39,227 bases of DNA. Origin: Folioceros fuciformis. Lineage: Eukaryota. Under the pieces are notes generated by a model. The model was given only the letters and a program-made list of their open reading frames with translations, did not search any database and had not been told where the DNA came from. Below, piece by piece: positions 1-36,454 of the stretch (positions within the stretch are counted from its first letter, which is position 1; each line of letters opens with the position of its first letter). The translations under genes were made by a program, and so were the position numbers. The stretch spans positions 125,114 to 164,340 of the forward strand of contig JBNGIO010005990.1 of NCBI GenBank assembly GCA_049999805.1, given 5' to 3'.

Positions 1-62
1 GCATAAAACATATAAAGGAATAGATGTGAGGGGGAGACATCGCAATTGTCAAATGAGGTTTG

Positions 63-506
63 GAGGTAGTGATGGGAGAGACTAAGGAGAAATTGCAATT
101 ATGTTTTAAGCCTGGAACGAAGGAGAAAACCACAATTAGCATGAAGTGTTTAATTGTTAAATTTTGAAATTTTGATGTCATTTTAGGGATGGAAGCTTTG
201 TTTATGCCTAGGGGAGGAGTGGATCTGTGGACAAAGGAGTTCTATTATCATCTAGGTTATCAACAAGATGATGGGTTGAGCTAGACAACAATTCCACTCA
301 AATTGCAATTGCAGGACGATGGGCAAGATGAATGCATAGTAGATATGACAACTTCCTTGGAGGGACAGGATGAAGAGGATAAAATGTGGATTATGCGTCA
401 CATGTGTAAGTCATGCTTTAAAGAGTGTAGTCATATCAAGCTGGAGGAGGATTCAATGAGAGCGAGTGTTGGTAGAGCATTAGCTGAGATTTTTAGAGAG
501 CTTGAA
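63..506 (+). mobile_element. Decayed retrotransposon polyprotein fragment: C-terminal part of a retropepsin (aspartic protease)-like domain plus linker
   Basis: Frame +3 from 63 reads EVVMGETKEKLQLCFKPGTKEKTTISMKCLIVKF*NFDVILGMEALFMPRGGVDLWTKEFYYHLGYQQDDGLS*TTIPLKL and continues into ORF 303-506. FDVILGM (171-191) matches the D-h-h-L-G-M motif at the C-terminal end of Ty3/Gypsy-type retropepsins. There are two in-frame stops (165, 282). The catalytic D(S/T)G would lie left of the window. Confidence 0.5.
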
Positions 507-606
507 NNNNNNNNNNNNNNNNNNNNNNNNNNNNNNNNNNNNNNNNNNNNNNNNNNNNNNNNNNNNNNNNNNNNNNNNNNNNNNNNNNNNNNNNNNNNNN
601 NNNNNN
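507..606. other. Assembly gap (100 N, placeholder of unknown true size)
   Basis: Run of exactly 100 N. Confidence 0.98.
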
Positions 607-607
607 T

Positions 608-1297
608 CAATTGGATGATAAGATTCGACCTTGTACGAAGGAAGCACTTTGTAAACTTGAGCTTGTTTGTAATAAACTTGTGACTTTGAGTTCGTCTATG
701 TATGGATTGGTCATGGTTGAGCTGTTTGCTGGGATTGCATCTAGTCTGGACCTGTGCTGGCTGCTGGATATGTAGTTAGACGCTACATTTATTGTGACCC
801 AAATGAGGTTTGTGAGATGATTGTACAGTTAAGGGTGTTCAAGCTTTGCAAGAAGTATCCTGACCAATTAAAGGTTGAGGCTGTGAAACAAGCATTTTCC
901 ACTTGGCTGCAAGATGTTAGGCTTATTGGGTCAATACAGTTTCGGATTAAAGAGGAATTTGACCTTATAGTAGCAGGTTAGGAATGTACAGGACACTCAA
1001 TGGAAGGCAAAGGAAAGGGTTTGTTAGCTTATAGGTTTGTGTAAGTTTATGAGTTAATAAGGATTTTAAATTTTGTACCAACATCAAAAGAAGGAGTGTG
1101 GGTATTTGATTGAAAATGGAGACTCGCAAGTGGATAACAGAGTTATATTGAGGCAAGATTTTGAGGAGATCAAGTATTATCTGGGTGAACCTATAAATTT
1201 GGATGTGGTGCATTTTGGATCCAAAGTTCACAGGCAACGGTGTTTTTGGAATAATATGATGCCTAAGCATTTGTTGCAGAGCCATGCACATCAATGA
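608..1297 (+). pseudogene. Degenerate C5-cytosine DNA methyltransferase catalytic domain (DNMT3-like motif style), probably retrotransposon-borne
   Basis: Motif I GLVMVELFAGIASSLD (704-751, frame +2), 1-nt frameshift into VLAAGYVVRRYIYCD (754+, frame +1), QDVR, motif IV FDLIVAG*ECTGHSMEGKGKGL (958-1023; TAG at 979 probably from TGG; catalytic Cys 985-987), stop at 1042, frameshift near 1072, motif VI YLIENG and motif VIII LDVVHFGSKVHRQRCFWNNM (ORF 1073-1297). Motif order and spacing are canonical. There are no introns. Confidence 0.75.
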
Positions 1298-2847
1298 CAT
1301 ACGAATGACGATTTTGCACATAAACTTTTGCAGCTTTGATTGCTAGGCTGAAGATCAACCCGTAAGTGCCCTTCTTGCACCTATAACCTTCTACGCCTTC
1401 CTCCCCATTTTACATCAATCTCATGTTTACAAGATCATGATTCGGCTAGAAAAAATGATTGCAACCATTGTTTACATTTTGATTTAAGAAACACCTATGG
1501 AAAAGAGGCCTTAGAGTCTAGCAAACTTGAAGACCATTCTCTGAAGAGAGAAGCAATCACCAATCCTTTGGCAACACCTTCCAACAATGACAACAAGAAT
1601 TAGATTAAAGATAACCTCCACCACTATGACCATTAGGCAAAACCTATGACCATTGCATGTCAAACAATTTAGTAGTCTTGTAGATACAGACTTCCCCTCA
1701 TGTTCATAGAATTCTACAAAATTCTGGGACTTCTGGTTCAATGAAAATACATAGAAGATTGTTATATGAGATTATGCATATGCTGTAAAGATGCCGGGAT
1801 TCTATTAGCAGCAAGGTGTTGCGTGGAGGATGGACAAGACAAGCGTTTCAATGCCTCAGTCGTAGTCGTGCGAAGAATTCTATATTGTCTGGTCGAGACA
1901 CTTGTGCCACTTGGTCCCTGTGCAACATTATTGCATGTCTTGCAAGGCGACAACGACTGGCTGACTCACCCAATCCCAGTCTCGTTTGGGAATAGAGAAA
2001 AGAAAAACAGGCCGGGATGACAGATGGAGAAATCACAGGCGGTCAAATCCAGCAACAGAAGGGAAGGGCAGTTGGAACGCTGGTCTACCTGCATTTCTCC
2101 TACTGCTGCCTTCAGAACTGGATGAGGTGAAGTTGGAAGGAAAGATGTGGGGGAGAGAAGGAAGAAAGGCACCAGCAGCCTAGCCCACAGCCCAGAGCCC
2201 GACACTCACCACCCCTGTCTGTCACGCCGGGCGAGTGGATCCCAGTTGGTGGGACGGCGACAACGACGACCCCCGGGCTAGACCTCCCCTCCTCCCCCTG
2301 CCCGGGATGGGATCGTGAGGGCCTCGTCTAGCCCGGTGGGCCGGTGTGTCCCGCACCTCTGAACTGCTCTGGAGTTACGGTCTCCGCACTCCTCTGGCAT
2401 GTGCAGCGTTGTGCTGCCAACGTCCGGCCCCGCAGCGCTGCGAAGGCTGATCGTGAATTGCAGCCCGCAGGCCTCTCTCTCGTCCATTCCTTTTCTTTGC
2501 TGGTGTGGACGCAGCTGGCGAGCGGGCGCTGTGCTGCGCGGCGGGTGCGCCGAGCGTTGGGTTTCTCGGATCGGACTCCGGAATTCGAATGGACTCGGTG
2601 GGTTGCGGCCGCAGGCTCCAATTAGTGTGGGAATCGGGAGTTTGTGTTCTTCTGGCCGGATGCTTTATATAGTAAGCTCTTGTTGGAGAGTCCTGTTTTT
2701 GGATGCTACGTCTCGGGGACTGTGGAAGTCGGATTTGGATTCCTGCTGCTTCGTTGTTCAGGTCTGTCAGCGGAGGGGCCCTCGTTGGGTTGAGGCGGGC
2801 GTGTGTTAGAGTGTTGGGGTGCCGGGTCCGGAGGGGGAGGCTGGGCG

Positions 2848-5800
2848 ATGGCGGAGTTCTGGGTGTCGGATGGGCTCGCCGGGAAGGTCACCAAGAGTGC
2901 TGCAGTGGCGCCGGTCAAGGCTGGAAGCAATGTGTCGCTGGTGGAGGAGTACTGCTACGCGCTGGGAGGAAACAGGCCGCTGTACAGTATTCTCATTGCC
3001 AACAATGGGATGGCGGCAGTTAAGTTCATGCGCAGCGTGAGGACCTGGGCGTATGAATCGTTCGGGGTGGAGCGGGCTATTCTTCTTGTGGCCATGGCCA
3101 CGCCGGAGGATATGCGGATCAATGCTGAGCACATCCGGATGGCGGACCAGCTCGTGGAAGTGCCTGGTGGAACTAACAATAATAATTATGCCAATGTGCA
3201 GCTTATTGCGGAGGTGCTGTGCTGCTCCTGCTCCATGGGATTTTTGGGATTAGAATTCGGGTCCCTTCGGCTGGCTCTTGTGTGTGTCATTCGGGCAGGA
3301 GGATTGAATTTGAAGTTTCCTGTGCCAGATTGCTGAACGTACAGGAGTTTCGGCTGTGTGGCCAGGGTGGGGTCACGCCTCGGAGAACCCAGAACTTCCT
3401 GATGCGCTTGCTGAGCGTGGGATTGCCTTTTTAGGGCCGCCAGCCGCACCTATGGCTTCTCTTGGGGACAAAATTGGCTCCTCTCTCATCGCTCAGGCTG
3501 CGGGTGTGCCGACACTACCGTGGAGTGGATCTGGAGTAAGCTATCGTGCTATCCAGTTTTGTCTTTGCTAATATTTACAGCTCGAGTGGTCGTGTTGTTA
3601 GTTAGCTGCCTTTGCCTTATGGTTGGCATGGATACTTTGCTCTTTGCTTGTTGATGTGACAGTCAATTTAGAATTCCCTTGGTTGTGCAGGTGAAAATTG
3701 CATTTGAAAGCTGTCAGGAGCCTATTCCAGAGGAAATCTATAGCCAAGCATGTGTACACACAACGGAAGAGGCACTGAGGTCATGCCAAACTGTTGGTTA
3801 CCCAGTCATGATAAAGGCTTCTTGGGGTGGTGGTGGTAAAGGCATTCGAAAGGTATAGCGTCATGTGAGGTGGTTCTGTAACATAAAGACATTTCCCGCT
3901 TTCATGGGGTGTTTTCATTGAGGTGGAATGCCCCACTGCTTGTTCGTAATGACAATGATGTTGAAAATGCAGGTCCACAATGATGATGAGGTCCGTGCTC
4001 TTTTCAAGCAAGTGCAGGGAGAAGTGCCTGGTTCTCCGGTGTTCGTCATGAAAGTTGCATCGCAGGTCTACCTCTTGACTTTGTTCAACTTACGATGCTG
4101 CGGCACATGAGTTAATCTGGCGCGATTTCAATTCATACTGAAGTATTGATCCAGTTTTCTGGGATCGGAGCAGAGCCGACACCTAGAGGTGCAGCTGCTT
4201 TGTGACCAGTATGGAAATGTTGCAGCTCTGCACAGCCGGGACTGCAGTGTGCAAAGACGTCATCAAAAGGTTTCTTTTTCTTCTCGCCAATGGACCACGA
4301 GGTTGCTCTTGTGACTATGCCCACGCCATATTTTTGAAAACTCTTCTTGATTCAGATCATCGAGGAGGGACCTGTTACAGTTGCTCCGGCAGAGACAGTA
4401 AGGAAGTTAGAAGAAGGTGCCCGCAGGCTTGCAAAGAGCGTGAATTATGTGGGAGCGGCTACTGTGGAATACCTTTACAGTATGGACACTGGAGAGTTCT
4501 ACTTTCTGGAGCTCAACCCACGATTGCAGGTGACACCAATCTGAGCTACGTCAATTTGTCCAGATCAAATTTTCTACACCATAAGAGAGCTGAACCAGGT
4601 TTGCAGGTAGAGCATCCAGTAACAGAATGGATAGCAGAGATCAACGTGCCAGCTGCTCAGGTTGCAATCGGAATGGGCATTCCTCTGTGGGCACTGCCAG
4701 GTTTTGCTTCTGCTAAGCTGCTTGGTCGTCGTCAGCCAGCCTGTTGTCGTGGATGGTGTGCTGACTTCTCAACTCTCTACCAGAGATTCGCAAGTTCTTT
4801 GGAAGGGAAGGCGGAGGAGGGCATGATAGCTGGCGACAGACTGCAGAAGTTGCTACAGAATTCAATTTCGATTCTGCTCAATCTGTGAAGCCGAAAGGGC
4901 ATGTTGTTGCCGTCCGCATCACTAGTGAGGATCCTGATGATGGGTTCAAACCCACGAGCGGGAGATTGCAGGTGAAGTAATCTAAACTAATCCAAAGTGG
5001 AACACCTCGACACCTCATGGTCGTGATGCTTGCATGATTGAGGGAACTGCAGTAAACATCTCACGTTCTTTGAGTTGGATCATGTTGCAGGAGCTTAGTT
5101 TTCGGAGCAAGCCAAATGTGTGGGCTTATTTCTCCGTCAAGGTAAGAGCTGAGAATATGTCCTTCCACCTGATTGTCGAAGCCGTGACATGTCTTGGTTT
5201 CAGATTCTGAAGGATTTGCTTACACCATTGTTTATCAGTCTGGTGGTGGAATTCATGAATTTTCAGACTCCCAATTCGGTAAGTTGCACCTCGAATTGAT
5301 GCCTTTTCAGTATGTGGCTGGGCTGTTTGGGCGCTGGCTTGTTGCTTCATCAAGAAACTTGTGGTCAGCAGTTCTAATCTGCTGTAACTGTTCAGGTCAT
5401 GTATTTGCATTCGGAGAGACACGACCAACAGCAATTGCAAATATGGTGCTTGGTTTGAAGGAGTTGCATATTCGTGGGGAAATACACACCAACGTTGACT
5501 ACACAGTTGACCTCCTCCACGTAATTCTTTCATCCTGAAGACTTCTCAGGCTACTCTATGGCACATGACATTTTGTAACTTTGACGATTCTGATCATTCT
5601 GTGGTAGGCTGCGGAGTACCGAGATAACAAGATTCACACTGGCTGGCTTGATAGTCGGATTGCTATGCGTCTGCGGGTAGAAAGACCACCATGGCATCTG
5701 TCAGTAGTTGGAGGAGCTCTATATGTAAGCCCTTCCGACCAGATTCACCTCCCGTTCTAAGCAAAGGGTGCGTGTTGCTCTTCGGGGTTGGAATTTGCAT

Positions 5801-8800
5801 CTAACAAGGTTTTTCCTTCTCAGAAAGCAACCATGCTGACAGCAGCCAGGGTATCGGAATACATAGGTTATCTTGAAAAGGGGCAGATACCCCCCAAGGT
5901 AATGTGCCATGTTGAAACTTTGAAGTCAGCTGCGTTCATAGGATGAAGTGGTTTGTTTCACACGACTTTGGACCAACTCCCGATGTTCGCGTCCTTCTGT
6001 GCAGCACATATCTCTGGTCAGCTTCAGAATTGTTCTAAACATTGAAGGGAGTAAGTACAAGGTATGTTGCCTGCTCGTTGGTGGTTAACTACGTTTGTTA
6101 GTGAGCAGCACAGATGGTCGGTTTCTCAGCCGTATAGTCACAACAATTGCAGGTAGATGTGACCAAGGGAGGTCAAGGAAGTTATTGCCTTACATTAAAT
6201 CAATCCGTGGTAGAAGCGGAAGTCCACACTCTTCGAGATGGCGGCCTTCTAGTACAGGTTTGTATCAATCAGTACCGCTGCGGCTGAAAGTGTTGTAAGT
6301 GGCTTTGTAGTTGAGGCGCTGTGTGTTCGACTAGGACGTGCTTGGAAAGTATTTTATGGCAGAGCAGAAAATTATTCTGATGGTGAGTGCTATTGAAACT
6401 GGCCTCTTGCAGCTCGATGGAAACAGTCATGTTTTGTATGCAGAGGAAGAAGCAGCGGGGACTCGCCTCCTGATTGATGGCAGGACCTGTCTCTTACAGG
6501 TATACTGAACTCCCTCTCTGTCTATCCTCAAGATTGAGTTTTCCTTTCATGTGATGTCGCTTACATTCGTGTTCGTGGCAGAATGATCACGATCCTTCAC
6601 GGTTAGTTGCAGAAACGCCGTGCAAGTTGATGAGGTTTCTTGTCCAGGACGGCACTCATGTTGACACAGACACCCCATATGCAGAAGTTGAGGTGATGAA
6701 AATGTGCATGCCACTGCTCTCACCCGCTTCTGGAACCATCCGTTTCAAGATGGCAGAGGGCCAAACAATGCTGGTAGGAGTGTATCCTCTACATTGTTGC
6801 TTATCAAAGTGGTCTTCTGATTTGAGGGGAGATTGTGAGCTTATAATTGTCTGCAGGCAGGAGATCTTATTGCAGCACTTGATTTGGATGATCCCTCGGC
6901 AGTGAGAAAGGCTAAGCCATTCGATGGAAACTTTCCTCTCCTTGGCACGCCGACAGCCATGCCTGGGAGGGTGCACCATCGGTATGCAGCAAGTGTTAAT
7001 GCTGCAAAAATGGTTCTAGCCGGTTATGAGCATAACATAGAGGAGGTAATATTATGTCCTGTTATTGTATGTTATGTCTAGCGGCTGGTGGACTTCATGC
7101 TCTTAAACTTGAGGGCTGCTGATTCCACATGGCAAACGGTTGCTAACAGGTGGTGCAAACACTGCTCAGCTGTCTGGACGATCCCCAACTGCCTCTGTTA
7201 CAGTGGCAGGAGTGCATTGCTGTCTTGGCTACTCGTCTGTCCAAGGAACTGAAAACCCAGGCACGGTTTCGTTGACCTGCACTGAAACTTTTCTCACGGT
7301 TAGCTGTGCTGTATATGTAAGGTCAGATGCATTAGCAGATGATGTAGTATGCAAATTCATTGAACCCTTTAGCTTCTATGTACAGCTAGACACAAAGTTC
7401 AGAGAGTATGAAGTTCTGTTCTCTGGAAATGGAGGAGCTGCTGAGTTTCCTGCAAAGGCTCTTGGAGGTGTGCTAGAGGTATTGAATTTCTAGGTGTGCT
7501 AGAAACATTGAATTTTATTGGAGCTGTGGATTTGCAGACGAGTCTGGTCTTTATTGGACCAGACTGGACTACATTGTGCAGACTTTTCTGGGGACATTTT
7601 CAGACAAGGATAGAGCACCTCAGCAGAGGCTAGTTGAGCCTCTACTGGCCCTGGCTAAGTCTTATGAACAGGGGCGTGAAGGTCATGCCTGCAGCATCGT
7701 TCATTCTTTGTTCCACGACTATCTCGTTGTTGAAGAGCTCTTCAGTGAGAACCTGCAGGTGCCGTCATGGATGACCTTCTAAGAGGATGCCTATGATTGC
7801 ATGTTTGCTCTCTTTGGATGTTGCTAGCCAAACCACTAGGCAACTCCAAGGCCTGTTTCAGCTTGTGTTACCATGAGTTTGCTCACCAGCATGTGCACAT
7901 CGTCTCTCGGATGCTGTGATGTAGGCTGATGTCATAGAGATGTTGAGACTTCAACACAAGAAGGACCTTTCAAGGGTCGTGGATGTTGTGCTCTCGCATC
8001 AGGTAGCTTCTATATCATTATCCTTGTATCGCAATTACGGAAAGGCTGGAAGCATGCTGAAGGAGGTCGATGTTGTGCAGGGAGTGAAGAGGAAAAATAA
8101 GTTGATCTTGCAGCTGATGGGGGCTCTCGTGTACCCTAATCCTGCAGCCTATCGGGAGCAGCTTATCAGATTTTCGAGGTTGAGTCACACGAATCATGCT
8201 GAGGTATGAGTTCCCTTCAATGTAGAGTCGATAGGGGGCAGTAAGGAGGTATGATTCTATCTCATCGTGTTCAGAACTAACTGTTTTACTGTCTGCAGAT
8301 TGCACTGAGGGCTCGCCAGCTGTTAGAACACACGAAGCTAAGTGAATTGAGATCAAACATTGCCAGAAGTTTATCACAGCTTGAAATGTTCACAGAAGAC
8401 GCTGGAGATGGAGCCCATGGCCGCAGAAGGAGTGCTATTGATGACAGGATGGATGATTTGGTAGACGCACCTTTGGCTGTTGAGGATGCTCTGATTGCAC
8501 TATTCGACCACAGTGACCACACCTTACAGAGACGTGTTGTTGAAACTTATGTCCGTCGACTGTATCAGGTACGGTGGTGTCCATGTCCATAACCTTCTTG
8601 ACAGTTTGACTCTATGGCGATGGTTTTAGATGGCTGTTGCCAACCTGAGGATGGGGAAGTCTTTTTTTTACTTGGTACAATGATGTCAATGATTGACCTT
8701 CAGCAGCTTCATTGTTGCAGAACAGAGGCGGCTCTGTTGGATGGTTTACTTGCTTGAAGTTCAGTGCCAGCTGACGTCACTGTGTCTCACTGTGTCTCTG

Positions 8801-11800
8801 TGACAGCCACGTTTGGTGACGGGATCAGTCAGAATGCAGTGGAATCGGTCTGGCTTGATAGCTTCTTGGCAATTCTCGGAGGGAACCCCTCCAAGGACTA
8901 CTGAGATGCTAAGTGGGTCTCTAGGATCATCGGCCACTGACAATCCTGGTGTGAAGCGGTGGGGAGCCATGGTCATTCTTTCCTCTCTGCATTTCCTACC
9001 AAGCGCTGTTGGTGCTGCTCTGCATGAAACCGGGGACCTCTTGACCAAGGGGTCAGTATCCAACGATCAGAATACCAGGCTTGGTAACTTTGGTAACGTC
9101 TTGCATGTAGCGCTTGTGGGCATCAAGAACCAAATGAGTGCGCTACAAGACAGGTTAGTAGTCAAAGTTGGGGTCTGGTCCTGGGAGGTCAGTTTTTTCC
9201 GAAATCGTGTACTGCTTTGGCAATGTAGCATCTGGTGACAAGGTTCAACATGGGTGCAGCGGAGACGAAGATCAAGCACAAGAGCGAGTGGAAAAGCTTG
9301 GTAAAGCTCTTAAAGGCGAGAGCTTAGGTCCGATGTTGCACAAAGCTGGGGTTGGCGTGATAAGCTGTGTTATTCAGAGGGATGAGGGTAGGCCTCCTAC
9401 TCGTCATTGCTTTCACTGGTCCACAGACCGTCAACAGTTCACAGAAGAGCCTCTTCTGCGACATGTGGAGCCACCCTTGTCGAGGCTGCTAGAGCTGGTA
9501 ATGATCTTCCAGTGCGGTTGGATACCAAGGGGGCAGGCTTCTTCGTGCCTGACATTGCTCCGTTCTCGTGTGCAGGAAAAGCTTAAGGGTTTTACTTCCT
9601 TGGTATATGCTCCGTCCAGGGATCGGCAGTGGCACATGTACTCTACAGTGGACAAGCCCGGGAACATCCGACGTGTATTCCTTCGCACGTTTGTGAGGCA
9701 GCCTCGGTCTGCCAGCATGTACAGTGAAGATGCGCAAGCTGATGGGGACACATCCCCTGTTTCCACAAGTGTGATCAAGGCTCTACAGGGAGCTTTGGAA
9801 GAACTGGAATTGGCAGCTCATGATTCGAATGCCAAGGCAGATTATGTCCACATGTTTCTGAGCGTTCTGAGAGCACAGAGCCTGGAGAGCATTGGAGGGG
9901 ACACAAGGTAATTCACGTTGTACGCCTATGCGCTTCTTGGCAAAGCTCATTTTGACTGGTGAATATCAATGAGGGTAATCAGGATCATGTGAATAAACTC
10001 GACCAGTGGTTGGGTCTTGCAGCAATGCTCTGTCGGCGACCTTTTCAGGAAACTATCCACAAGTGATTGCTGGCAGCCTTCAACGCCTGGCAGAAACAAT
10101 ATACGGCAGGCTGGGTGCCCGCATGTACCGTCTTGCTGTTGCGATTTGGGAGCTTCATCTGCATATAAAAAATGTTGGCTCAGCTAGTGGGGCTTGGCGT
10201 ATTGTTGTGTTCAATCCAACAGGCCACACCTGCACAGTCCAGGTTTCAATGACTAGTTTGCTGGTTCAGTTTCGCTGTTTTGCATCTTGTTATCCTTGCA
10301 AATCTGAGATGCGCGTGCTTCATGTCATAGGTATACCGAGAAGCGCTAGATCCAGCACAACATGCTGTGGTATACTATTCGCCACTGGACAGCTCTGTGG
10401 GCTATTTGCATGGGAAGCCGCTCACGACGAGGTACAAATCCTTGGATGCAATTGACAGAAAGAGATTGTTGGCACGGAAGAACAACACGACATATTGCTA
10501 CGACTTTCCATTGGTATGTCCACTGCAGTGCACTTTGGCTTTCACCCGAGCTGTGGAGCTGTGGTCCGGCATGCCCGACCAGCGAGTCATCCATCATTCG
10601 TGTATGTTGATTGCAGGTTTTTGAGACAGCTTTACGTCAGTGGGGGGAAGCCGCAGGGAAGGAGAGTGAAGGGTCTGTCCTGAGAACCTCTGAGCTCGTG
10701 TTTTCGAACTCAGAGGCAGACTGGAGAACACCCCTGATTGAGATTGAGCGACCTGTTGCGACAAATGATGTAGGCATGGTCGCATGGTACTTCCATCTCC
10801 GGACTCCTGAGTATCCATCTGGACGCACCATCCTGGTTGTGGCAAACGATGTTGCGTACGGTGCAGGCGCGTTCGGACCTAGGGAGGACAAGTTCTTCAA
10901 GGCAGTAACAGATGTTGCTTGTGAGAAGAAGTTGCCACTAATCTATCTTGCAGCCAACTCTGGAGCAAGGATTGGGTTAGCAGAGGAAGTGAGGTCTACA
11001 TTCAAAGTGGGATGGTTAGACGATGCTCCTGAGCGGGGCTTGCAGTACCTGTACCTAACTCCGGAGGATTATGGACGGATCAAAGATTCTGTGAACGCTC
11101 ATGAAGTGAGTCTGCCGTCTGGGGAGATAAGGTGGGTGATTGATGATGTCGTCGGAAAGGAGGATGGGCTGGGGGTCGAGAATCTGTCAGGTAGTGGTGC
11201 AATCGCTGGTGCCTTTTCGAAGGTTTATCAGGAAACGTTCACTCTGACGTACGTGACTGGGAGAACAGTCGGAATCGGTGCTTACCTTTCCAGGTTAGGC
11301 ATGCGCTGCATTCAAAGGGTGGATCAGCCCATCATCCTCACAGGCTTTTCAGCACTGAACAAGCTTCTGGGAAGGGAGGTATACAGTTCTCACATGCAGT
11401 TGGGTGGGCCAAAAGTAATGGCTCAGAACGGTGTGGTACATCTCACCGTCACAGACGATCTGGAAGGTGTTTCTGCGATCTTAAAGTGGCTTAGCTACGT
11501 TCCGTCCGTTCAAGATGGGAAGCTGCCAGTTCTAGATCTGGGAGACCCTCCAGAAAGGTTGGTTCAGTACATACCAGATACCGCCTGTGATCCACGAGCT
11601 GCCATCAAAGGTGTCCAAGGCAGCGAAAGCTGGCTGGGAGGGATATTTGACAAAGGCAGTTTCACGGAGACTCTGGAAGGATGGGCACAAACTGTGGTGA
11701 CTGGTCGTGCGCGGCTGGGGGGTATTCCTGTCGGCGTGGTCGCTGTGGAAACACAGACAGTGATGCAGGTGATACCTGCTGATCCTGGGCAGCTAGACTC

Positions 11801-13019
11801 CCATGAAAGAGTGGTGCCACAGGCAGGGCAGGTTTGGTTCCCCGATTCCGCTGCCAAGACTGCTCAGGCTCTGCTGGATTTTAACAAGGAGGGCATCCCG
11901 TTGTTTATCTTGGCTAACTGGAGGGGGTTTTCTGGCGGGCAAAGAGATCTGTTTGAAGGAATCCTTCAGGCTGGCTCCCTGATAGTGGAACACCTGAGAA
12001 CCTACAAGCGACCCGTGTTTGTGTACATTCCCAAGACGGGAGAACTGCGAGGAGGAGCCTGGGTTGTGGTGGACAGCAAAATTAACCCTGATAAGGTGGA
12101 ACTGTACGCCGACACGACAGCCAAGGGTGGGGTCCTGGAGCCTGAAGGCATGATAGAGATCAAGTTCCGTCCTCGGGAACTGTTGGAATGCATGCACCGC
12201 CTCGACCCACAGTTGGCTAGTTTGAAGCAGCAGCTCGCGGGCAGCCCGTCTACTGGCTTGGCTGAATTGCAGCAGCAAATAAAAGCAAGGGAGAAGCACC
12301 TCCTCCCGTACTACAAGCAAGTGGCAATTCGGTTCGCTGAGCTACACGACACCTCTTACCGCATGGCTGCCAAGCAGGTCATCAAGCAGGTAGTCCCTTG
12401 GGAGGAATCCCGCCACTTCTTCCACAAGAGGCTGAGACGGAGGCTAGCAGAGGAATCGGTGATTAAGGATGTGAAAGGTGCGGCTGGAAACTCTTGCTCC
12501 GACAGCCAGGCACTGGAATGGATAAAGGAGTGGTTCCATGCTTCTCAGCTCCCATCCAGCGGCCCGGGAGACGATCCATGGAGCAAGGATTCCTTGTTCC
12601 TGGAATGGTGCAATAATGGGCCGCCTCTGGCAGAGCAGTTGCAAGCACTACGAGCCGACCGGCTGTCGAAGGAGATGAGCTCTTGGGGCAGCCCAGACTT
12701 GTCAGCCCTGCCTCGAGGCTTGGATGCTCTCCTGCACACAGTAGGATGCTGTTTCCTTGTCTCATTCCTGACCTCCCTCATTTTGGATTTGTTGTCTTCT
12801 TCTTTGCCAGGTTTCTGGGTTCCCTTGTTTGTTTTGCTTGTTTCCTTTCCTAGTTTCCCTTCGCGTGTTGCCTCGTTTCCTGTTTTGGCACGGGACAGCC
12901 AACATAAGCCTGTTCCGTGTGATGCCAACTGAATCTAGTGTGTGGGATGGCAGCTGGAGGGACCGGGGAGGGCCCAGATGGTGGAGCGGCTGAAACAGGT
13001 TCTGGAATCTCACAACTGA
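2848..13019 (+). CDS. ACC1: Homomeric (multifunctional, cytosolic-type) acetyl-CoA carboxylase; about 31 exons
   Basis: Biotin carboxylase motifs ([64 protein letters not shown]), biotin carrier motif EVEVMKM (~6684-6704), central domain, and large carboxyltransferase exon 10617-12740 ([41 protein letters not shown]). ATG at 2848 has an in-frame upstream TGA (2791). Last exon 12954-13019 reads [21 protein letters not shown]. Exons were traced by eye through GT/GC-AG junctions. Confidence 0.96.
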
Positions 13020-16786: not shown

Positions 16787-17448
16787 GATTGTGATACATG
16801 TGGAAAAGCGGAGCAGCAGCATTTGCCTAAAATGCGCGCTGATATGTAGGAGATCGTGGTGCCACAGCGTAGGGAGGGCCACGTCGGCTGGACCACGCGT
16901 CGCGGCATCCAAATTTCTGTCACGGGACTGTACTCGCCTGTCCGTGTTGTCCCCCACTCACTTTTGAAGCTAAGTGACAAAACAGAATCTGGCGCCGGAT
17001 CCCTTTTCCCTGGATTTACCCCAGGGAGAAAACTGTATTACCCGCCATCACCGTACCGGGGGCAAGTTGGCGGCCCACTTTGGGACGCCGTCGCACCGCC
17101 CGTAATTACATAAGCTATGAACTATGAGCCATAAGTCAAGCCAAGCCGTTCCCAACAGCAAACCGACGCCTGTCCCGCCTCGGTTCATCCCCTTCCCCGG
17201 CGGCCTGGGGACCCGGCTGAAAAAGAAAAATCCGTCTGCAACAAGGCCAATCGCTGGCATCTCGTCACCTTCGCTGACTCTGCCCCTGTCCCTGCCGTTG
17301 CGTTTGCTTGTGCGTATGCGTGTGCGAGTCCCGGTGTGGGTTGATGCTGGCCAGGACTGGGATGCTGAATCTGGTGCGGGAGAAGCTGGAGGTGGATCTG
17401 CAGCTGGACTGCTGCGGACTATGGCGGTGACGGAGGCTTCCAGCTGTC

Positions 17449-20400
17449 ATGGACGGAGCCGAGACCAAGTCGCCCCTCCTTAACACGCAGCAGCTGCAGC
17501 ACCAGCTGCAGCAGCTGCAATCCGTGCCGGAGGTGATGGCTGGGGCAAGCCCGGTCCCGGCTGGGGTGAATGGTGGAAGACCGTGGGACGGTGATGTCTC
17601 CAAGCTGCTGGCGTCGGGATCCCCGGATGCGCGGTTTCTTGAGGATGACCCGCCGCTCATGGAGCTCATGGAGCTGGAGTCTCTGTGTGATCAAGGCGCA
17701 GAATCGTGGATGGCCGGATCCCCTGGGGACTATGGGATGCCGTTCCTCAACTTCTCCTTCCCGCCGAGAAACATGTCTCCCGCGGCCTCTCCTTACTCCG
17801 CACCTATGCAGCAGCAGCAGCAGCCGGGGTTTTTGTCGTTTCGTCCGCCGGGGCCCGGAGTAGGAGAGATGCAGCAGCAGCAACAACAACAGTTTGAGGT
17901 GAATCCTGGAGGATTTAGTGCCGCATCCGAGTACGAGCGGCTCTCGCAGGCGCTTCTCGGTTTGGAGCAGCCGCAGCAGGTGCGGCCGGGTTTGGATGTC
18001 GATTACGCTCTTGCCGCTGCGCAGGCGCAGGTTGGTGTTGCCCTACAGGCGCCTGTGGAGGCCGTGCTGCCGGTGCCGCAGCCTTCGGCGGGGATGTCTC
18101 CGCCACCTCCGGGGCAGTTTTCGGCGGAGGATTTGCTGGAACATTACTTGGCCTCGCCCAAGGAGCGGGATGCGGGGGGATGGCCGGAGGATGTGAAGCA
18201 GCAACAGCAAACGCAAATGCAGCTCGTTCCGCCGGGCGGTTTGCATCTCATGAAAAGTAGCGTGTGGATCACACCCCATTTGTCATTCTCTTTCAAGGAC
18301 CGAATGATGCAGGCGTTGCAGATGATTGCACGGGGTAAGGGGGATGTCCTTGTGCAAGTGTGGATGCCGGAGATTGTGCACGACAGGGTGCAGCTAATCA
18401 CCAATGGCCAGCCGTACGCGCTAGAGCGCGACTCGGAGAGCGATGGATCGGGCTTGTGCCAGTACCGCGCGGTGTCTATGCTGTACCAATTCAGTGCGGA
18501 GAGGGACATGAAAGACGATCAGCTAGGGTTGCCTGGTCGGGTCTTCGTGAAACAGACGCCTGAGTGGTCACCGAATGTACAGTTCTACAAGAAGCAGGAG
18601 TTTTGGCGTGTCGCTGCTGCGGAGCAGTGCGACGTGCGAGGGACTCTCGCCGTCCCCGTCTTCGATCCCTCTTCTGGTTCTTGTATCGCAGTCATTGAGC
18701 TTTGTATGAGAGCTTCCAAGGTCCAGTACAGCCCGGAGATTAAAGACATTTGCCATGCCCTGCAGGTTTGCGCCTTGTACCGTCCTCGGTTGAATTGAAC
18801 GCGCAGCGCGGGACCACGTGATGCTAATAGCAGTGGATTTATCATGTGTAAAGGTTGTGAATTGGTATCAGGACACTGACTTCCTCTTTTGTCATCCTTT
18901 GTCCAGGCCGTCAATCTTACGGGCCCCGACGGTGTCACCTTACCCGGAGAGGTAGTGTCATCGTAATCGTGGATTGCCAATATGCGTGAGATTGTGCAGA
19001 TTTGTGCTGTGCTCTGGAATGGGCGACTCATCCCTCTCTTCCGTTGTACGCCAGATCCGTTCAGAAGGTCGTCAAGCTGCCCTGGCGGAGATTGAGGAGG
19101 TTTTGGTAGCTGTATGCGAGACTCACAAACTTCCCCTGGCCCAGACATGGGTCCCCTGTAATCGTGCTCGTGCTCGTCTGAGTAAGAGCGGTGGCAAGAT
19201 CGGGGAATCTGCAACTGCTCCCACGAGCAGTAGTTCCAGTAACCACAGTTCGGAGTCTAGTGGAGATCAGCTGAGATACTTGATGACGGGGGATGGGCCC
19301 TGTTACGTGAGTAACTACGCAAGTGATACCACCAAGATATGGGATTTTCGCAAGGCTTGCGAAGAACACTGTCTGGAACGAGGGCAGGGTGTTCCTGGCC
19401 AGGCCTACTCTTCAAATCAGCCCTTCTTTGCAAGTGATGTGAGAGCTTACACCAAGATGGAGTATCCTCTGGGGCACTATGCTCGCTTATTCGGATTGAC
19501 GGCAGCTGTGGCCATTCGGCTCAGGAGTGTGCATACTGGTAATGATGACTTTGTGCTGGAGTTCTTTCTGCCTCCCAACTGCCAAGGTAGTGTGGAGCAG
19601 CAGACAACTTTAAATTCGCTCTCCATTACGATGCAGCGAGTCTGTCGAAGCTTGCGTACAGTTTCCGCTCAAGAGCTGGAGGATGATGATAGAGCTGCAG
19701 CGCGCCATGAAGACTCTTTGGAGGTTGATAGTCATGCCGGTGGTGGACTAAATCACAGTGATGAACATTTGTCTTGGTCTGATTCTCATGTCTCGCCTGG
19801 CAATCATGTGGATGGGCCTCATCAGCAGTGGAATGGTCTTGTGGATCCCAGGCAGAGAGGGCAGCGGCCATCTGATCATGCTCAGCTACCTGGGTTTCTT
19901 CCCCTGGGCCAGTGCACTCCACCCCCTCATCAGCATCAGCAGCGAGTGCAGCAACCGTTACATCGCGCACCACTACAGGAAGGGGAGCAGCAGCAACCAC
20001 TGCAGCAACCTCACAGCGATGCACCTACAAATCCTCAACGTCCACCTGCAGGTCTGCGCCGTGAAGAAGAGCTCAAGGCAACCACTGGTACATCTTCGTC
20101 AATGCCTGGTTATCCGCTACCTTCTCCGTCTCAGGAGACTATGCTTAAGAGAAGATTAGACAGAAGGCGAGGCACGACTGAGAAGACAATCGGCCTGAAT
20201 GTTCTTCAACAGTATTTTGCTGGTAGCCTCAAGGACGCCGCAAAGAGTATAGGAGGTGAGTATGTAGAAGTTTAGTGGATTTGCACTCGAATTCCAGATA
20301 TTTGAACGCCCGCTTCTGCTGGGTTGGTGCCATCGGATGAGGTCACGCTTACCCTAAATTTTTTCTGCTTCTTTGCAGTCTGTCCGACAACGTTGAAAAG

Positions 20401-21457
20401 AATTTGCCGACAGCATGGAATTTCAAGGTGGCCGTCGCGGAAGATCAACAAAGTGAGCAGGTCTCTGAAGAAACTTCAAGGGGTGATCAATTCTGTTCAG
20501 GGGGCGGATGGCGCTCTGAACATCAATGCTCTGACATGTGATTTAGCATCTGCTGCTGCAGCTGCCTCCGCGGTAGCAGGGGTGCAATTAGGAAATGGTG
20601 GCGAACCGTCAGGCAGGGCAAACTGGACCATTGCCTGGGGCAAGTCTGCCCCTGAACCGGGGGACCAGACTTTTGCAAAAGACCTGCCTGACGTTGATAT
20701 GAATGCAGGAGTAACAGAAGTGAGAGCGGACAGTATGGAAAGGAGGGAGTGTTGCACGCCGGAAGGTGGAAGTGTAGGCGATGGTTCGAATGGAGTGAAT
20801 GGATTACCGGATGGTCTGTCTCCCTGTAATGAGACTGAGCGGGATGTGATCAGAACGGGCTCTAATTCTGCTGACAGTGGAGACACCCTCAGCAGACGGC
20901 GGCCGGTAATGGCAGGCGAGAATCGTGTACACGGGGGTGGAGCAGTTTTGGTGGCATTAAGTGGGGCTGATACAGAAAGCTTCATGCGAGATTGTGGTAC
21001 GAATAAGACGGGAGACATCTCACCCCGTGGATTCTCGCTCGACAGTTCAGATGAGGGAAGTCAACCCGCAACCACCTTTCCAGGCCGTAATGAGGCTGGT
21101 AGCCCCTGCAGCCCGTCGTCGATGGAGAGGAAAGGGCATGCCACAAAGAAGTACATTCTAGAAGATCAAGTGATAGTGAAAGCTACGTGTGGACCAGATA
21201 CTGTCCGGTTCAAGATGCCCTCGAATACTTCTTACGAATACCTCAGGGCTGAAGTGTCAAAGAGGATAGGTGCGGGTGGGGAAATGCTGCTTAAGTACCT
21301 AGACGACGATGCTGAGTGGATGCTGCTGTCTTCTGATCCGGATCTGCAAGAGTGTATGGAACTGATGCAAATGTCGGGCGGACACTGCATCAAGCTTCTG
21401 GTGAAATGTAACTTGCCAAAGTGTACAGAAGGATGCCCCGACAACTGTGACCGATAA
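17449..21457 (+). CDS. NLP: NIN-like protein A (nitrate-responsive/GAF-like region, RWP-RK, PB1); 4 exons
   Basis: Exons 17449-18765, 18907-18951, 19055-20255, 20379-21457 with GT-AG junctions in frame. NLP motifs: [122 protein letters not shown] (RWPSRK 20426-20443), PB1 [13 protein letters not shown]...[20 protein letters not shown] (~21170-21405). Confidence 0.95.
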
Positions 21458-23653
21458 CGTTGGCACCCTCTGCCCAAAAATCTCGCATGGAGCCGGTATT
21501 GTCAGTATTGGTTGATGAGAGTATTTTGCCTGGATTGTCTCCAGTGTCATTCTGGTGTCCTTTCACGAAGGTGGTGGTCCGCCGACAGTCGCCTGAAACC
21601 GCTCTCCTTCCCAGTCACAGGGTATACTGTCGCCGGGATACAGTGAAGGCAGTCTTAAAGTGTGCGGGGAGGTACAGATCATGGAAAGCGATAGAGGAGG
21701 TGACGAATATTCCTGGATGCCCACCTCTGTTATCAAATCCAATTGTTTTCAGCCAGGGTACTGTCACACATGAGCAGCGCCCAAGAAGTCACGTACCCAC
21801 ATGATGCGATTTCAAGCAGGTCCCGGCAACTCTCGGCAAACAGTATCGGAGGGGTGGCCTAGTCTGGACGCAAGGCTGTGCAGTTAGTTAACAGCCGCCG
21901 TGCTCTCCACCAATTCACACGACTTGATTCCAACTTGGCGGACTTCATGCGCGAGGTATGCTGCATATTGTAAGCTGAAAAGGAGAAATTTGTTCCACGG
22001 TTGGTAGGGTCGTGATTCCAGTCTCAGCCACGGGCTCACTAAAGGTGGTGCGTGTTTTGCAGGCGAAAAATTATATTCGCCTCACGCAGACAGGCGAGGC
22101 GAGGAAATGATGGAATCAGGCACGGCATGTCTGTAGCGGCACTGCACTCGCTGGGTGGCGGCACCTTCCCTCCACGCGCTGGGTGGGCAGTGTACAAGTG
22201 ACTGTAGAGCAGCCTACTGGTAGCGGGCTTGTGTTGAATTGTGGGGAGTCTACTCGTAGCAAAGAGACACGTAACTTGAATGTATTATTTTGGCCATGAG
22301 AAGGAAATAGTTTGCGAAGAAAGAGGCAGGAAGGCAGGGAGTCGGTGCGGGCTGCTCTCCCCCCAGGCCCACTTCGCCACAATAGCAGACTAAACATGTA
22401 AAGGCGGGGGCGATAAAACGACGTCCGCATTGGCACGAAGCACCAGAGCAAAAGTTGCTGAAGAACGCGGGCCATGCGGCTGGGCTGCTCAGCTTGGACC
22501 AGGAACATGGAATGGCAGCCGGAATTGAGATGGAGCATATTCGAGGAGCATCTCGGCACGTCTGTGGAACTACCTGAAAAGCGGCTAGCGAACCTGGAGA
22601 GAGGGGCAGCCAAATTTGTATGGGCGGAAGGGTTACTTTGCAGGCAGCTTGCTTGTGGAAGGTCCTAGCTAGATGGGGCAATGGGTGCATGAGAGAAATA
22701 TGGAGGAAGAGATAGCATGTGGGAAAGAATCACTCATGCAACTTGACAAGCCTAGTTGTGTCCCGGTGTGCTCTGGCACTGTGCGTGTGTGCAGCCGCTT
22801 GTCTGTGTGTCTGGTATTTACATCCAGATTCTTCCCCAGCCCGCCTAAATTTGTATGTGCCGGCCCCACCCAATGGAACGTGGACTCCTTAAATTTAGCT
22901 CCCTCTGTGTAAACGCTGCTTGCTCGTTTACGATCTATCCACGCTGTAGCCAGTCATCGGTCCTGGACTCCTACCCGATTTTATAACAAGCTGGCCCGAG
23001 ACGCACGCTCGTTCACAACACCACGCCACACGCCCCCCCCCTCCTCACCTCTTCCTCCTCTGCTACCTGCCCTTGTCCGCTACCTGAGCGGGAGCCCGAG
23101 AGCCTTCTGCCTGTCCTTGTCTTCTGCAGCTCCCGCCACCCCGGATTCCTTCCCCTTTCCTACCCTTCCTCTCTTAACTCTGCCTCCTTGTCTAGGTATA
23201 TCCTTCATTTGCGCAACCCCTCAAAGCATTTGCAAGGGAAAGGAAGCCGCGGAGCGGCTGCGTCAACGGACCGGACTGGCGACAACCCAACACGTCGCTG
23301 GCCGCCCTCAAGGTGAGATCCTTCTACCCATCTGCTCTACGCTGCTCTGTTCTGCGCCGTAGCTCTCTCTGCTTTCTCCCGCCTGGTGTGCGCCGCTCTG
23401 GAGATTCCAGCGCAGTGAGTCCTGGGCAAGCCGTGTTCCAGCGGAGAGGTGCCTTGAAGAGGCCCGGGAACCACCCGTCGTGCAGATAATGCAAATGTGG
23501 CTCCCTTTCCTGACGCTGTGTCGGGTGCAGGGGCAATGGCCGTGAGGAGGCTCGTTAGCGCTTACCACAATGGGCGCTTGCTGCTGCGGTTCGGGCTTTG
23601 CGTCGTCTTCTAGCACAACCAGCGAGTAGCACTTGGTAGCGTTCTGGTGAAAC

Positions 23654-26600
23654 ATGGCGGCAGGCTCGCCTGTGAACAACGTTGGCCCGTGGATAGCCAC
23701 GGGAGGACTCGGAATGGACTCCCGCATCATGGACGAGACCGCGCTCATGGAGTTGCTGGAGTGGGAGCCCCCCTACGACTCGGTGGCTCTAACAACTTGG
23801 GCCCCTACCGACTTCGTGGTGCCCTCCTCCCTTAACTACTCCGCCATGAATTCCTGCTCCGCGTCGCCCTTGGCAGCGGCAGCAGCGTCACCACTCGCTG
23901 GGAGCTGCTGTGCCGCGGTAGAGGCAGCGCAGCCTCACGCGTCCTCCATGCCTCCCCCTGCTTGCCGGCAGTACCAGGGAGATCTTCCGCTGGTGGCAGA
24001 CCCGGAGCCGCCTCATGCCTCGCGCTTCACGTCTTACCCGCCTTTCGGGTCACTGGAGGGCTGGGAGACGGGCCAATCCTCGGGCGTGACAGACAGGGAA
24101 AGGGACAGGGATGGGGACACCAGCTTGGCCTTCACGGCTCGGGGGGAGGTCCCATCACCCGCCACCACGCTCACGGCTACGACTCCTCCGGGGCAGCCGC
24201 AGCTGGAGTCGCTGGCGGAGAGCGAGGAGCGCGGGCCGCAGGTGGAGGATGGGCCCGGGCCCGGGCCCGGGCTTGGGCTGCAGCGCCGGGGCCCCTGGAC
24301 CACTCTGGACTACAGCTTCAAGGAGCGCATCGCGCGGGCTCTGGCCATGGTGCCGTGCCGGGACGCGCTCCTGCAGGCCTGGATGCCCGTAGAGGTAGGC
24401 GGGAAGGTGCTGCTCACCACCAACGGGCAGCCCTTCTCGCTGCAGGTGGTGCAGGAGTGGCAGCGGGAGCTGGGCGGGCTGTGCCTCTACCGCGCGCATT
24501 CCACCAAGTATCAGTTCGCGGCTAGGGAGAAGGCCGGGGATGTGCTGGGACTCCCGGGACGGGTCTTTTCCAAGAGGAAGCCGGAGTGGAGTCCCGACGT
24601 GCAGTTCTACAAGCGGCATGAGTTCCTGCGGAGCTCCGACGCCCAGCAGTGCAACGTGCGGGGGACCCTGGCGGTGCCCGTGCTGGATCCCGTTACCGGG
24701 TGTTGCGTTGCGGTTGTGGAGCTATGCGTCACGGTCCAGAAGGCGCACTTCGGCCCGGACATGCGCGCCATTTCCCGAGCCCTGCAGGTTGGTTCATGTT
24801 GCCAGCAAGACTTGGCTCTGTGATGATATCTCTTCCAAATCCGATCACGAGTTGGGTGATGGTGAGCCGATTTGATTTGATGGTTGGCGGAATTGAATTT
24901 CTTCCGATTGCAAGGTTTCTTGGCGCTGTGATGTAGGGCTAACTGCAGGACTTGTGTCGTTGTGCGGTTTTGCAGGCTGTGGAGTTGGCGAGCACGGATG
25001 TCGTAGACTCTCCGGCTGCTGCTGAAGATGTAAGGGACATTGTGGGCGGTTGCGGTGGAGTGAGTGAGTGCGGCGTGTTTCTGCATTGCTTGGAACAGGC
25101 GAGTGAGGATTTTGTCGGGTTTTGCTGCAGGTGGAGGTGGATGCCGGGCGGCAGGCGGCCATGTCTGAGATCGAGCAAGTGTTGATTGCCGTCTGCGAGA
25201 CTCACAAGTTGCCTTTGGCCCAGACGTGGGTGCCTTGCACTGGGATGAAGAACGCGGGGAAGGGGGATTCCGGGACCTGTGTGAGCAGCTGCTGCGGGTC
25301 CAGTTACGATTCGTGTGGGGAGCCTATGAGTTGTTTGGTGATTGGGAAGGGGCCGTGTTGTGTGCGGTACGAGAATTTGTGGGATTTCCACCAGGCCTGC
25401 CAGGAGCACTGCCTGGAAAGAGGCCAGGGTGTGGCAGGCCAGGCCTACGCGTCCAACCATCCTGTGTTTTGCAGCGATGTCAGCAGGTATTCCAAGGGGG
25501 AGTACCCTCTGGGGCATCATGCAAGGATGTTTGGGCTGACGGCGGCCGTGGCTATTCGGATAAGGAGCAAGCATTCCGGGAAGGATGACTTTGTGCTGGA
25601 GTTCTTCCTGCCCCCGTGTAGTGAAGCTGGTAGCACGGAGCAAGAGACGACGTTGAATGCGCTGTACGTGACCATGCAGCGTGCCTGCAGGAGCTTGCGA
25701 AGCGTCTCGGATAGGGAACTGGAAGAGGACATGGCACCGGCTGTCACGGAGGACTCCTATGAGGCGGATAGTCACATGACCGTGACCGTGAAGAAAGAGG
25801 ACGTTGCGGAAAGTGATGGGCAGGGCGTGCAGTGGTATGACTGTGGGCAGCAAGCAAGTCAGTTTGTAGTCAAGGCTGAGCAGCATGAAGACTTGTGTGA
25901 ACCTGCTCTTTTCCATCCCCCTTGTCATGATGCAGCAGGCCAGCAGCAGCAGATGCAGCATCAAGATCTTCATTCGCTACAGTATCAACAGCTTCAACAG
26001 CAGCAGCAACTGCAACAGCAGCAGCAACTGCAACAGCAGCAGCANNNNNNNNNNNNNNNNNNNNNNNNNNNNNNNNNNNNNNNNNNNNNNNNNNNNNNNN
26101 NNNNNNNNNNNNNNNNNNNNNNNNNNNNNNNNNNNNNNNNNNNNCAGCAACTGCAACAGCAGCAGCAACTGCAACAGCAGCAGCAGCTGCAACAACAGCA
26201 GCAGCTTCAACAGCAGCAGCAGCTTCAACAGCAGCAGCAGCTTCAACAGCAGCAGCAGCGTCGACAGCAGCAGCAGCTTCAACAGCAGCAGCAACCCCAA
26301 CTACTATTTCAGCCGCCGCGTCCCTTCATGCAGCGGTCAGATCACCTTCATCAGGATATCCTGGTGCGGAGTAATGTGACCGGCCCGTCTTCAGTTGGAT
26401 ATTTCCCAACGCCTTCATTGCACGAAACTGCGTTGAAGAGAAGAGTAGACAGGAGACGCGGCTCGACTGAGAAAACAGTAGGCCTGAATGTCCTTCAACA
26501 GTACTTTGCTGGTAGCCTCAAAGATGCCGCAAAGAGCATTGGCGGTGAGCAACTTAACCTTCGTAGCGTACCCACGATTTTCTGTACAGCAGCAATCGTA

Positions 26601-26998
26601 GCTAGCCTGTACATGCTGTAGTGTAGCATCACTTAAAGCTATAGCTAGGATAGTGATTTTTTGACACTCTTGGGACTGGTGGTTTGGCAGTATGTCCGAC
26701 AACTCTGAAAAGGATATGTCGCCAGCATGGAATCCCGAGGTGGCCCTCTCGGAAGATCAACAAAGTAAGCAGATCCCTGAAGAAGCTTCAGGGAGTGATC
26801 AGTTCCGTGCAGGGGCCCGATGGTGCCCTCAGCATCAACGCCCTGACCAGCGACATTGCATCGGCTGCAGCAGCAGCCTCCGCAGTGACTGGGGTGCAAT
26901 TGGGCAATGGCAGTCCGCAGGTAGAAGCATCCTGGCCTATAACCTGGGCTTCGTCATCTCCAGGAGCCTTGGGCCAAAGCTCTGCTAGTGAGTCGTAG
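23654..26998 (+). CDS. NLP: NIN-like protein B, tandem paralogue; RWP-RK intact, long polyQ tract, no PB1 in exon 4 (3' end uncertain, may splice on at 26988)
   Basis: Exons 23654-24787, 24976-25029, 25131-26544, 26691-26998 mirror the NLP A intron positions. It has the same NLP motifs ([56 protein letters not shown] 26738-26755). TAG at 26996 truncates the frame about 150 codons before the equivalent end of NLP A. Confidence 0.88.
25980..26300 (+). repeat. Coding polyglutamine minisatellite (LQQQQQ units, 18 bp), interrupted by an assembly gap
   Basis: Repeated ctg/ctt-caa-cag-cag-cag-caa/cag units on both sides of the N run 26045-26144. Confidence 0.93.
26045..26144. other. Assembly gap (100 N) inside the polyQ tract
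   Basis: Run of exactly 100 N flanked by CAG/CAA repeats. Confidence 0.98.

Positions 26999-32327: not shown

Positions 32328-36454
<4,127 letters not shown>

Follow-up and report, generated by a model that had tools for sequence, protein, structure and literature searches.

A probable Ty3/gypsy retrotransposon relic with a decayed DNMT3-like methyltransferase domain behind its protease

Introduction

DNMT3 domains have been described in two kinds of retrotransposon, the Gypsy elements of Klebsormidium nitens known as KnitGypsy-Dnmt3 and DIRS elements of Symbiodinium (PMC5890265, Nat Commun 9:1341). The preliminary description of the present DNA had likewise named dinoflagellates and charophyte algae as groups in which capture of DNMT domains by retrotransposons has been reported. 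Its authors proposed that DNMT3 domains within Pol methylate the element's own cDNA or its integration site, and they found no methylation by KnitGypsy-Dnmt3 in yeast. Since the same assay gave no signal for human DNMT3B either, they considered this result inconclusive (PMC5890265). A 2025 paper (PMC12344493) and a 2026 preprint (10.64898/2026.05.21.726589) still cite only the Klebsormidium and Symbiodinium cases, the preprint with the wording “streptophytes (Gypsy-DNMT3)”.

In the literature that we searched for bryophytes, hornworts and green algae we found neither a report of a DNMT-bearing LTR element in a land plant nor a mention of the identifier MARPO_0008s0049, a Marchantia protein considered below. 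The preliminary description knew of no well-characterised land-plant family of this kind. Public protein sets of Marchantia and Sphagnum nevertheless already include members of the family. A streptophyte alga has thus already yielded elements of this kind, and those among liverwort and moss proteins seem to have escaped notice.

Here we describe such a relic at the beginning of a stretch of 39,227 nucleotides, which we call the window. Its family resembles KnitGypsy-Dnmt3, as the latter is described in PMC5890265, in having an intronless DNMT3-type domain within Gypsy Pol in a streptophyte host, and the copies in K. nitens carry non-CG methylation, as the relic appears to do. This likeness is one of description, no K. 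nitens sequence being among the named matches of our searches, which scored the 8000 candidates sharing most words. The two differ in that the window holds a dead, truncated copy and that acetyl-CoA carboxylase places the host of this copy with land plants.

A decayed methyltransferase domain behind a protease tail

Window 1-1297 is very probably what is left of a dead LTR retrotransposon of Ty3/gypsy type, from a family that, to judge from its related sequences, encodes gag, protease (PR), a DNMT3-like domain, reverse transcriptase (RT), RNase H (RH) and integrase (INT) in one polyprotein. The ancestral element had its DNMT3-like domain in this single polyprotein directly after the protease. 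The fragment lacks its 3′ end, and its 5′ end is cut by the edge of the window, probably with more of the element lying beyond that edge. The features are collected in Table 1.

Table 1. Features of the relic and of the neighbouring genes, in window coordinates.
Feature	Position	Strand	Frame, evidence or remark
Retropepsin C-terminal part and start of PR-DNMT linker	1..506	+	tblastn of family proteins; frame of 57/168
Stop in protease frame	165-167	+
FDVILGM	171-191	+	frame of 168; translation of the window
Stop in protease frame	282-284	+
Assembly gap (100 N) within PR-DNMT linker	507..606	.	letters of the window
Linker end and DNMT motif I	607..751	+	frame of 608; first DNMT segment, 608-751
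ELFAGI (motif I)	719-736	+	frame of 608
First frameshift	~751/752
DNMT motifs II-IV and next helix	754..1068	+	frame of 745; second DNMT segment; phmmer best E 2.4e-15
DLIVAG*ECTGHS	961-999	+	frame of 745
AG*ECTGHS (motif IV)	973-999	+	frame of 745
Stop within motif IV	979-981	+	family Trp position
Stop in DNMT part	1042-1044	+
Second frameshift	between ~1068 and ~1079
DNMT motifs VI and VIII	1070..1297	+	frame of 1070; third DNMT segment; alignment with relatives
LIENG (motif VI)	1106-1120	+	frame of 1070
HRQRCFWN (motif VIII)	1229-1252	+	frame of 1070
Final stop	1295-1297	+
Acetyl-CoA carboxylase gene	2794-12932		Carboxyl_trans E 3.7e-144; start ~1.5 kb downstream of relic
NIN-like protein gene, first of tandem pair	17431-21457		GAF_NLP, RWP-RK, PB1
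NIN-like protein gene, second of tandem pair	23651-26998		GAF_NLP, RWP-RK, PB1
Second 100-N gap of the window	26045-26144		in poly-Gln tract of second NIN-like gene
P-type Ca-ATPase gene	32166-36454

The preliminary description had read the DNMT part as a decayed, intronless C5-methyltransferase with motifs I, IV, VI and VIII, split over three segments in two frames. Each of the strings that it quoted, FDVILGM included, lies where it had been placed, and the assignments agree with the alignment to DNMT3A: the four motifs follow one another in order when aligned with the family and with DNMT3A, and the codon of the catalytic Cys in motif IV is kept, with Glu in the usual place of Pro and a stop in the preceding position, which is Trp in the family. 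When the middle segment (108 residues, stops written as X) was searched with phmmer against 1.84 billion representative proteins, 130 matches were found at E ≤ 1e-3 and seven at E ≤ 1e-10 (best 2.4e-15, 38-43% identity), and none of the matches was more than 50% identical to it. Chance similarity, which we also considered, is ruled out by these E-values. In tblastn searches the family proteins matched all segments of the window in order, and their matches end at window 1279-1309.

The preliminary description had proposed HMMER searches against DNA_methylase (PF00145) and retropepsin profiles after repair of the frameshifts. With the pieces as they stand, Pfam matches stayed under threshold: the middle piece scored E 0.0091 and 15.9 bits against PF00145, for which the cut-off is 22, and the protease piece E 0.13 against RVP_2. 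Among the 27 relatives that we scanned, PF00145 was found at E ≤ 1e-3 in 18, with 12 of these above the Pfam cut-off (maximum 45.7 bits). The domain of the window is also incomplete, ending after motif VIII without the target-recognition region and motifs IX-X, while its relatives extend for ~120 residues more. With four internal stops, two frameshifts and this loss at the 3′ end, it is not a complete open C5-methyltransferase domain.

As the preliminary description had noted, no RT or integrase is visible: across the whole 39 kb we found no similarity to RT, RNase H or integrase at E ≤ 0.1. Nor did blastn of window 1-2000 against the whole window find the second copy expected of an LTR, the element being cut at both ends here. 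With LTR, RT, RNase H and integrase all lacking from the window, the relic is recognised as a retrotransposon through its relatives, which are only 27-43% identical to it.

Relatives, architectures and tree

What, then, do the relatives look like? Pfam found RT, RNase H or integrase domains in 21 of the 27 scanned. We took a census of the 310 proteins collected, probing them with segments of one complete member, and found the DNMT domain between RT-RNase H and integrase in ~98 (type A, RT-RH-DNMT-INT) and between protease and RT in ~49 (type B, PR-DNMT-RT); a further 158 were fragments with the DNMT domain only. A complete type B protein is P0309, with 2358 aa, in which PR (663-711), DNMT (953-1137) and RT (1443-1596) are followed by RNase H, integrase and PHD. 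Closterium P0133 has the order CCHC (zinc-knuckle gag)-PR-DNMT-RT and Closterium P0341 the order CCHC-PR-DNMT. The protease-DNMT-(RT) retrotransposon family that had been predicted from the window letters alone is therefore found as such in P0309 and P0133. Among land plants, the Marchantia polymorpha protein MARPO_0008s0049 (P0359) has a zinc knuckle, a DSG protease and a full DNMT domain, and a Sphagnum troendelagicum protein (P0372) reads as (gag-)PR-DNMT. Both are annotated as genes and could be miscounted as host methyltransferases. The UniRef name of P0372 is “DNA (cytosine-5-)-methyltransferase”.

The tree of the domain (FastTree, 142 DNMT domains, 330 columns) included the three pieces of the window as one row, with X at the breaks. 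This row fell in a 43-row clade (support 0.94), together with all 27 PR-DNMT-RT rows and 15 fragments without assigned type, and with none of the 82 RT-RH-DNMT-INT rows; its position inside this clade had support of 0.08. All named members of the clade but one are streptophytes, namely Closterium sp. NIES-53, NIES-65 and NIES-68, Marchantia polymorpha and Sphagnum troendelagicum. Their proteins resemble the window in having the protease followed by the DNMT domain, are 27-37% identical to its pieces, and differ from it in the Marchantia and Sphagnum cases by Pro-Cys in motif IV where the window has Glu-Cys. The exception is P0336, a record from a metagenome-assembled genome (MAG) named [quoted passage not shown], which is probably a eukaryotic contig that was binned into a bacterial genome and so mislabelled.

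The named type A members are chlorophytes. In these green-algal Ty3/gypsy elements, of RT-RH-DNMT-INT-PHD architecture (Scenedesmus sp. PABB004 “pol”, Haematococcus lacustris, Chlamydomonas eustigma and Cymbomonas tetramitiformis), the DNMT3-like domain is homologous to that of the window but stands after RNase H, whereas that of the window stands after the protease. Some of the green-algal polyproteins (P0054, P0103, P0266, P0271 and P0281) have a G-patch between DNMT and integrase.

Affinity to DNMT3 and possible activity

The affinity of the domain was scored for the family and not for the window alone, using an alignment of 16 family DNMT domains. The profile of this alignment, run against PDB sequences, matched DNMT3A best (E 6.7e-24), followed by DNMT3C (8e-21) and DNMT3B (2e-20), and then by M.HhaI (1e-8), DRM2 (1e-6) and DNMT2 (1e-3). 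Motifs I, IV, VI, VIII, IX and X of the family pair with their DNMT3A counterparts in the profile alignment. A structure model of one family member, built from the family alignment, had a pLDDT of 89.5 and a pTM of 0.89, and among the Foldseek matches to PDB that were listed (34 rows of the top 50) all were DNMT3A, 3B or 3C, with TM ≤ 0.79. An ESM Atlas look-up of a Closterium protein agreed with a DNMT3 fold. By sequence profile and predicted fold, then, DNMT3 is the C5-methyltransferase group to which the family domain comes nearest, its best matches being the animal DNMT3A/3B/3C catalytic domains (for example PDB 2qrv, 6w89 and 8tci); it differs from these in being only ~23% identical, in having no PWWP or ADD and in being embedded in a retrotransposon polyprotein.

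How might an intact element use such a domain? In intact relatives the methyltransferase would be made within Pol, beside the protease, which could free the DNMT domain or position it in the particle, and the domain might then methylate the new cDNA of the element or its integration site, as de Mendoza et al. (2018, PMC5890265) propose for DNMT3 domains in Pol. We regard self-methylation in the intact relatives as rather doubtful; the copy in the window presumably does nothing.

The main rival view, feasible if on balance unlikely, is that the DNMT3-like domain of the family is a pseudo-enzyme or serves a different purpose: it might bind DNA or chromatin and so direct integration, or take RNA as its substrate. 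The ancestral element would then have had the fold without de novo DNA methylation. What recommends this possibility is the residue before the catalytic Cys, where Pro is near-universal in motif IV: Glu stands there in the window, in 51 of the 82 type A rows (Pro in 20, other residues in 11) and in 11 of the 27 type B rows. The failure in yeast of KnitGypsy-Dnmt3, the one relative of this kind to have been assayed, points the same way, although its authors do not take that result as conclusive, human DNMT3B having failed too (PMC5890265). However, the canonical Pro-Cys is kept in 14 of the 27 type B rows (neither pair being present in the remaining 2), motifs IX and X are kept in the relatives, and the catalytic Cys, the Gln and Ser next after it, the Glu of motif VI and one Arg of motif VIII are invariant in all 16 aligned members.

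Evidence for one element across the assembly gap

The halves of the relic are separated in the assembly by 100 N, and it could be asked whether the methyltransferase part is instead a host pseudogene of DNMT3 or DRM origin that lies beside an unrelated protease fragment by chance or through misassembly at the gap. Besides the gap itself, this proposal could draw on the Pfam matches of the pieces, which are under threshold. We consider it highly improbable, on the evidence of homology, of copy number and, to a lesser degree, of reads.

The segment containing FDVILGM, which had been described as retropepsin-like, was matched by protease segments of family proteins at E 2e-13 to 5e-9 in tblastn searches. 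Residues 783-855 of P0307 match window 57-275 (E 2e-13), residues 771-898 of P0357 match window 60-497 (E 8e-12), and the match of P0046 begins at window 33. It is only the tail of the protease that lies in the window, the active-site part being upstream of it. When all collected proteins were compared with window 1-1500 by tblastn, both halves were found in order and with window-like spacing in 24 of the 30 best-scoring relatives, the protease matches of these 24 spanning window 33/57 to 275/497, and the other six were without the protease part. This collinearity means that the gap does not join unrelated sequence, and on it we rejected a host DNMT pseudogene as the source of the domain. The placing of the window domain within the polyprotein-borne clade, the lack of introns, and the finding that the protease and DNMT halves are both multicopy at similar depth all argue in the same direction.

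The reads give a further, weaker indication. One Logan contig of run X1 bridges window 505 to 615 at a depth of 18, 26 other letters standing where it skips 109 positions, and when the join was read by hand the protease frame ran on into the frame of 608. On its own this bridge is weak, because the shorter side of the contig has just 30 letters, and the contig may come from a sibling copy. The gap, which the preliminary description had raised as a caveat to its view that protease and DNMT parts form one element, is accordingly answered by homology and, weakly, by reads, and that view is upheld.

State, copy number and methylation of the relic

Contigs of three runs from one sample (X1, X2 and X3) were placed on window 1-2400. 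Run X1 gave 66 contigs at ≥90% identity (10 at ≥99%, 11 at 95-99% and 45 at 90-95%), run X2 gave 46 (5, 8 and 33, respectively) and run X3 gave 59 (4, 9 and 46). Their summed depth reaches 228 within the relic, up to ~20 times that of the flank, and falls to a flat single-copy level of 10.4-10.7 from ~1280 on, beyond which sibling copies continue with other sequence. From the drop in depth and the divergence of the sibling sequences past ~1280 we infer that the family is multicopy and that this copy is truncated at ~1280-1297. At position 751 one more base is present in other X1 and X2 contigs, while X1 record 5 (716-1180) matches the window exactly, so the first frameshift is real here, and a sibling copy or allele does not share it. 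The relic itself is dead, with its four internal stops, two frameshifts and 3′ truncation, and without RT or integrase.

The relic also stands apart in composition, with 39% G+C as against 50-61% in the neighbouring genes and a CpG observed/expected ratio of 0.31 as against 0.51-0.76 elsewhere in the window. Besides being poor in G+C and CpG, the relic has far more G than C on its coding strand over window 1-1000 (GC skew +0.37).

Run X3 shows 67 C>T differences over window 38-800, as a library of bisulfite type would. Over window 153-493, where the + strand has 40 cytosines, one X3 contig has 30 differences. All 28 of the C>T changes listed there are at CHH cytosines and none is listed at the 3 CG and 5 CHG cytosines, and at most two of the 12 unlisted cytosines can have been converted. 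By hand calculation the chance of all eight CG and CHG sites being among 12 unlisted cytosines of 40 is ~6e-6. Because none of its CG and CHG cytosines is listed as converted and all listed changes are at CHH, the relic appears to be methylated at CG and CHG and unmethylated at CHH in most reads. Silenced plant transposons usually show this pattern.

Least likely of all is that the locus is a domesticated, still functional host methyltransferase gene of transposon origin. In favour of this is the annotation of family members as genes in Marchantia and Sphagnum. Against it, ~1.1 kb of the present copy contains two frameshifts and four internal stops, nothing of its domain remains beyond motif VIII, the frameshifted sequence is matched exactly by X1 record 5, its CpG is depleted to an observed/expected ratio of 0.31, and its CG and CHG cytosines appear methylated.

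Wider meaning and neighbouring genes

The window copy is a fossil, and what matters is the family to which it points. Together with the Marchantia and Sphagnum proteins it points to a PR-DNMT-RT clade that reaches land plants. We tentatively suggest that seed-free land plants (the present host, Marchantia and Sphagnum) and zygnematophyte algae share an old Gypsy clade with a DNMT3-type domain between protease and RT, and that this clade was active here not long ago, the latter suggested by sibling copies at 90-95% identity. If this is true, transposon-borne de novo methyltransferases have existed alongside the methylation machinery of plants since before the move to land, and such enzymes may still methylate DNA in plant cells. 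Cytosine methylation is the main route by which plants silence transposons, so a transposon with a de novo methyltransferase of its own would reverse this arms race. Land plants already offer the genetics and the methylome tools for testing such an enzyme.

The genes downstream of the relic (Table 1) give some indication of the host. Over 718 residues the acetyl-CoA carboxylase shares 66-72% identity with the ACC1 proteins of land plants, about equally across the land-plant groups sampled. Its best match was eukprot Gb_33780, and next came Araucaria, Taxus, Ceratodon, liverworts, a lycophyte and ferns; the sole algal entry of the 120 matches listed was a dinoflagellate, at 54%. In a quick tree the carboxylase, on a long branch, grouped without resolved order with a lycophyte, mosses and liverworts (SH-aLRT 87). 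The host is accordingly a streptophyte and most probably a seed-free land plant, a close algal relative of land plants being less probable. Further downstream, the second of the tandem NIN-like genes has a long poly-Gln tract that is interrupted by the other 100-N gap of the window.
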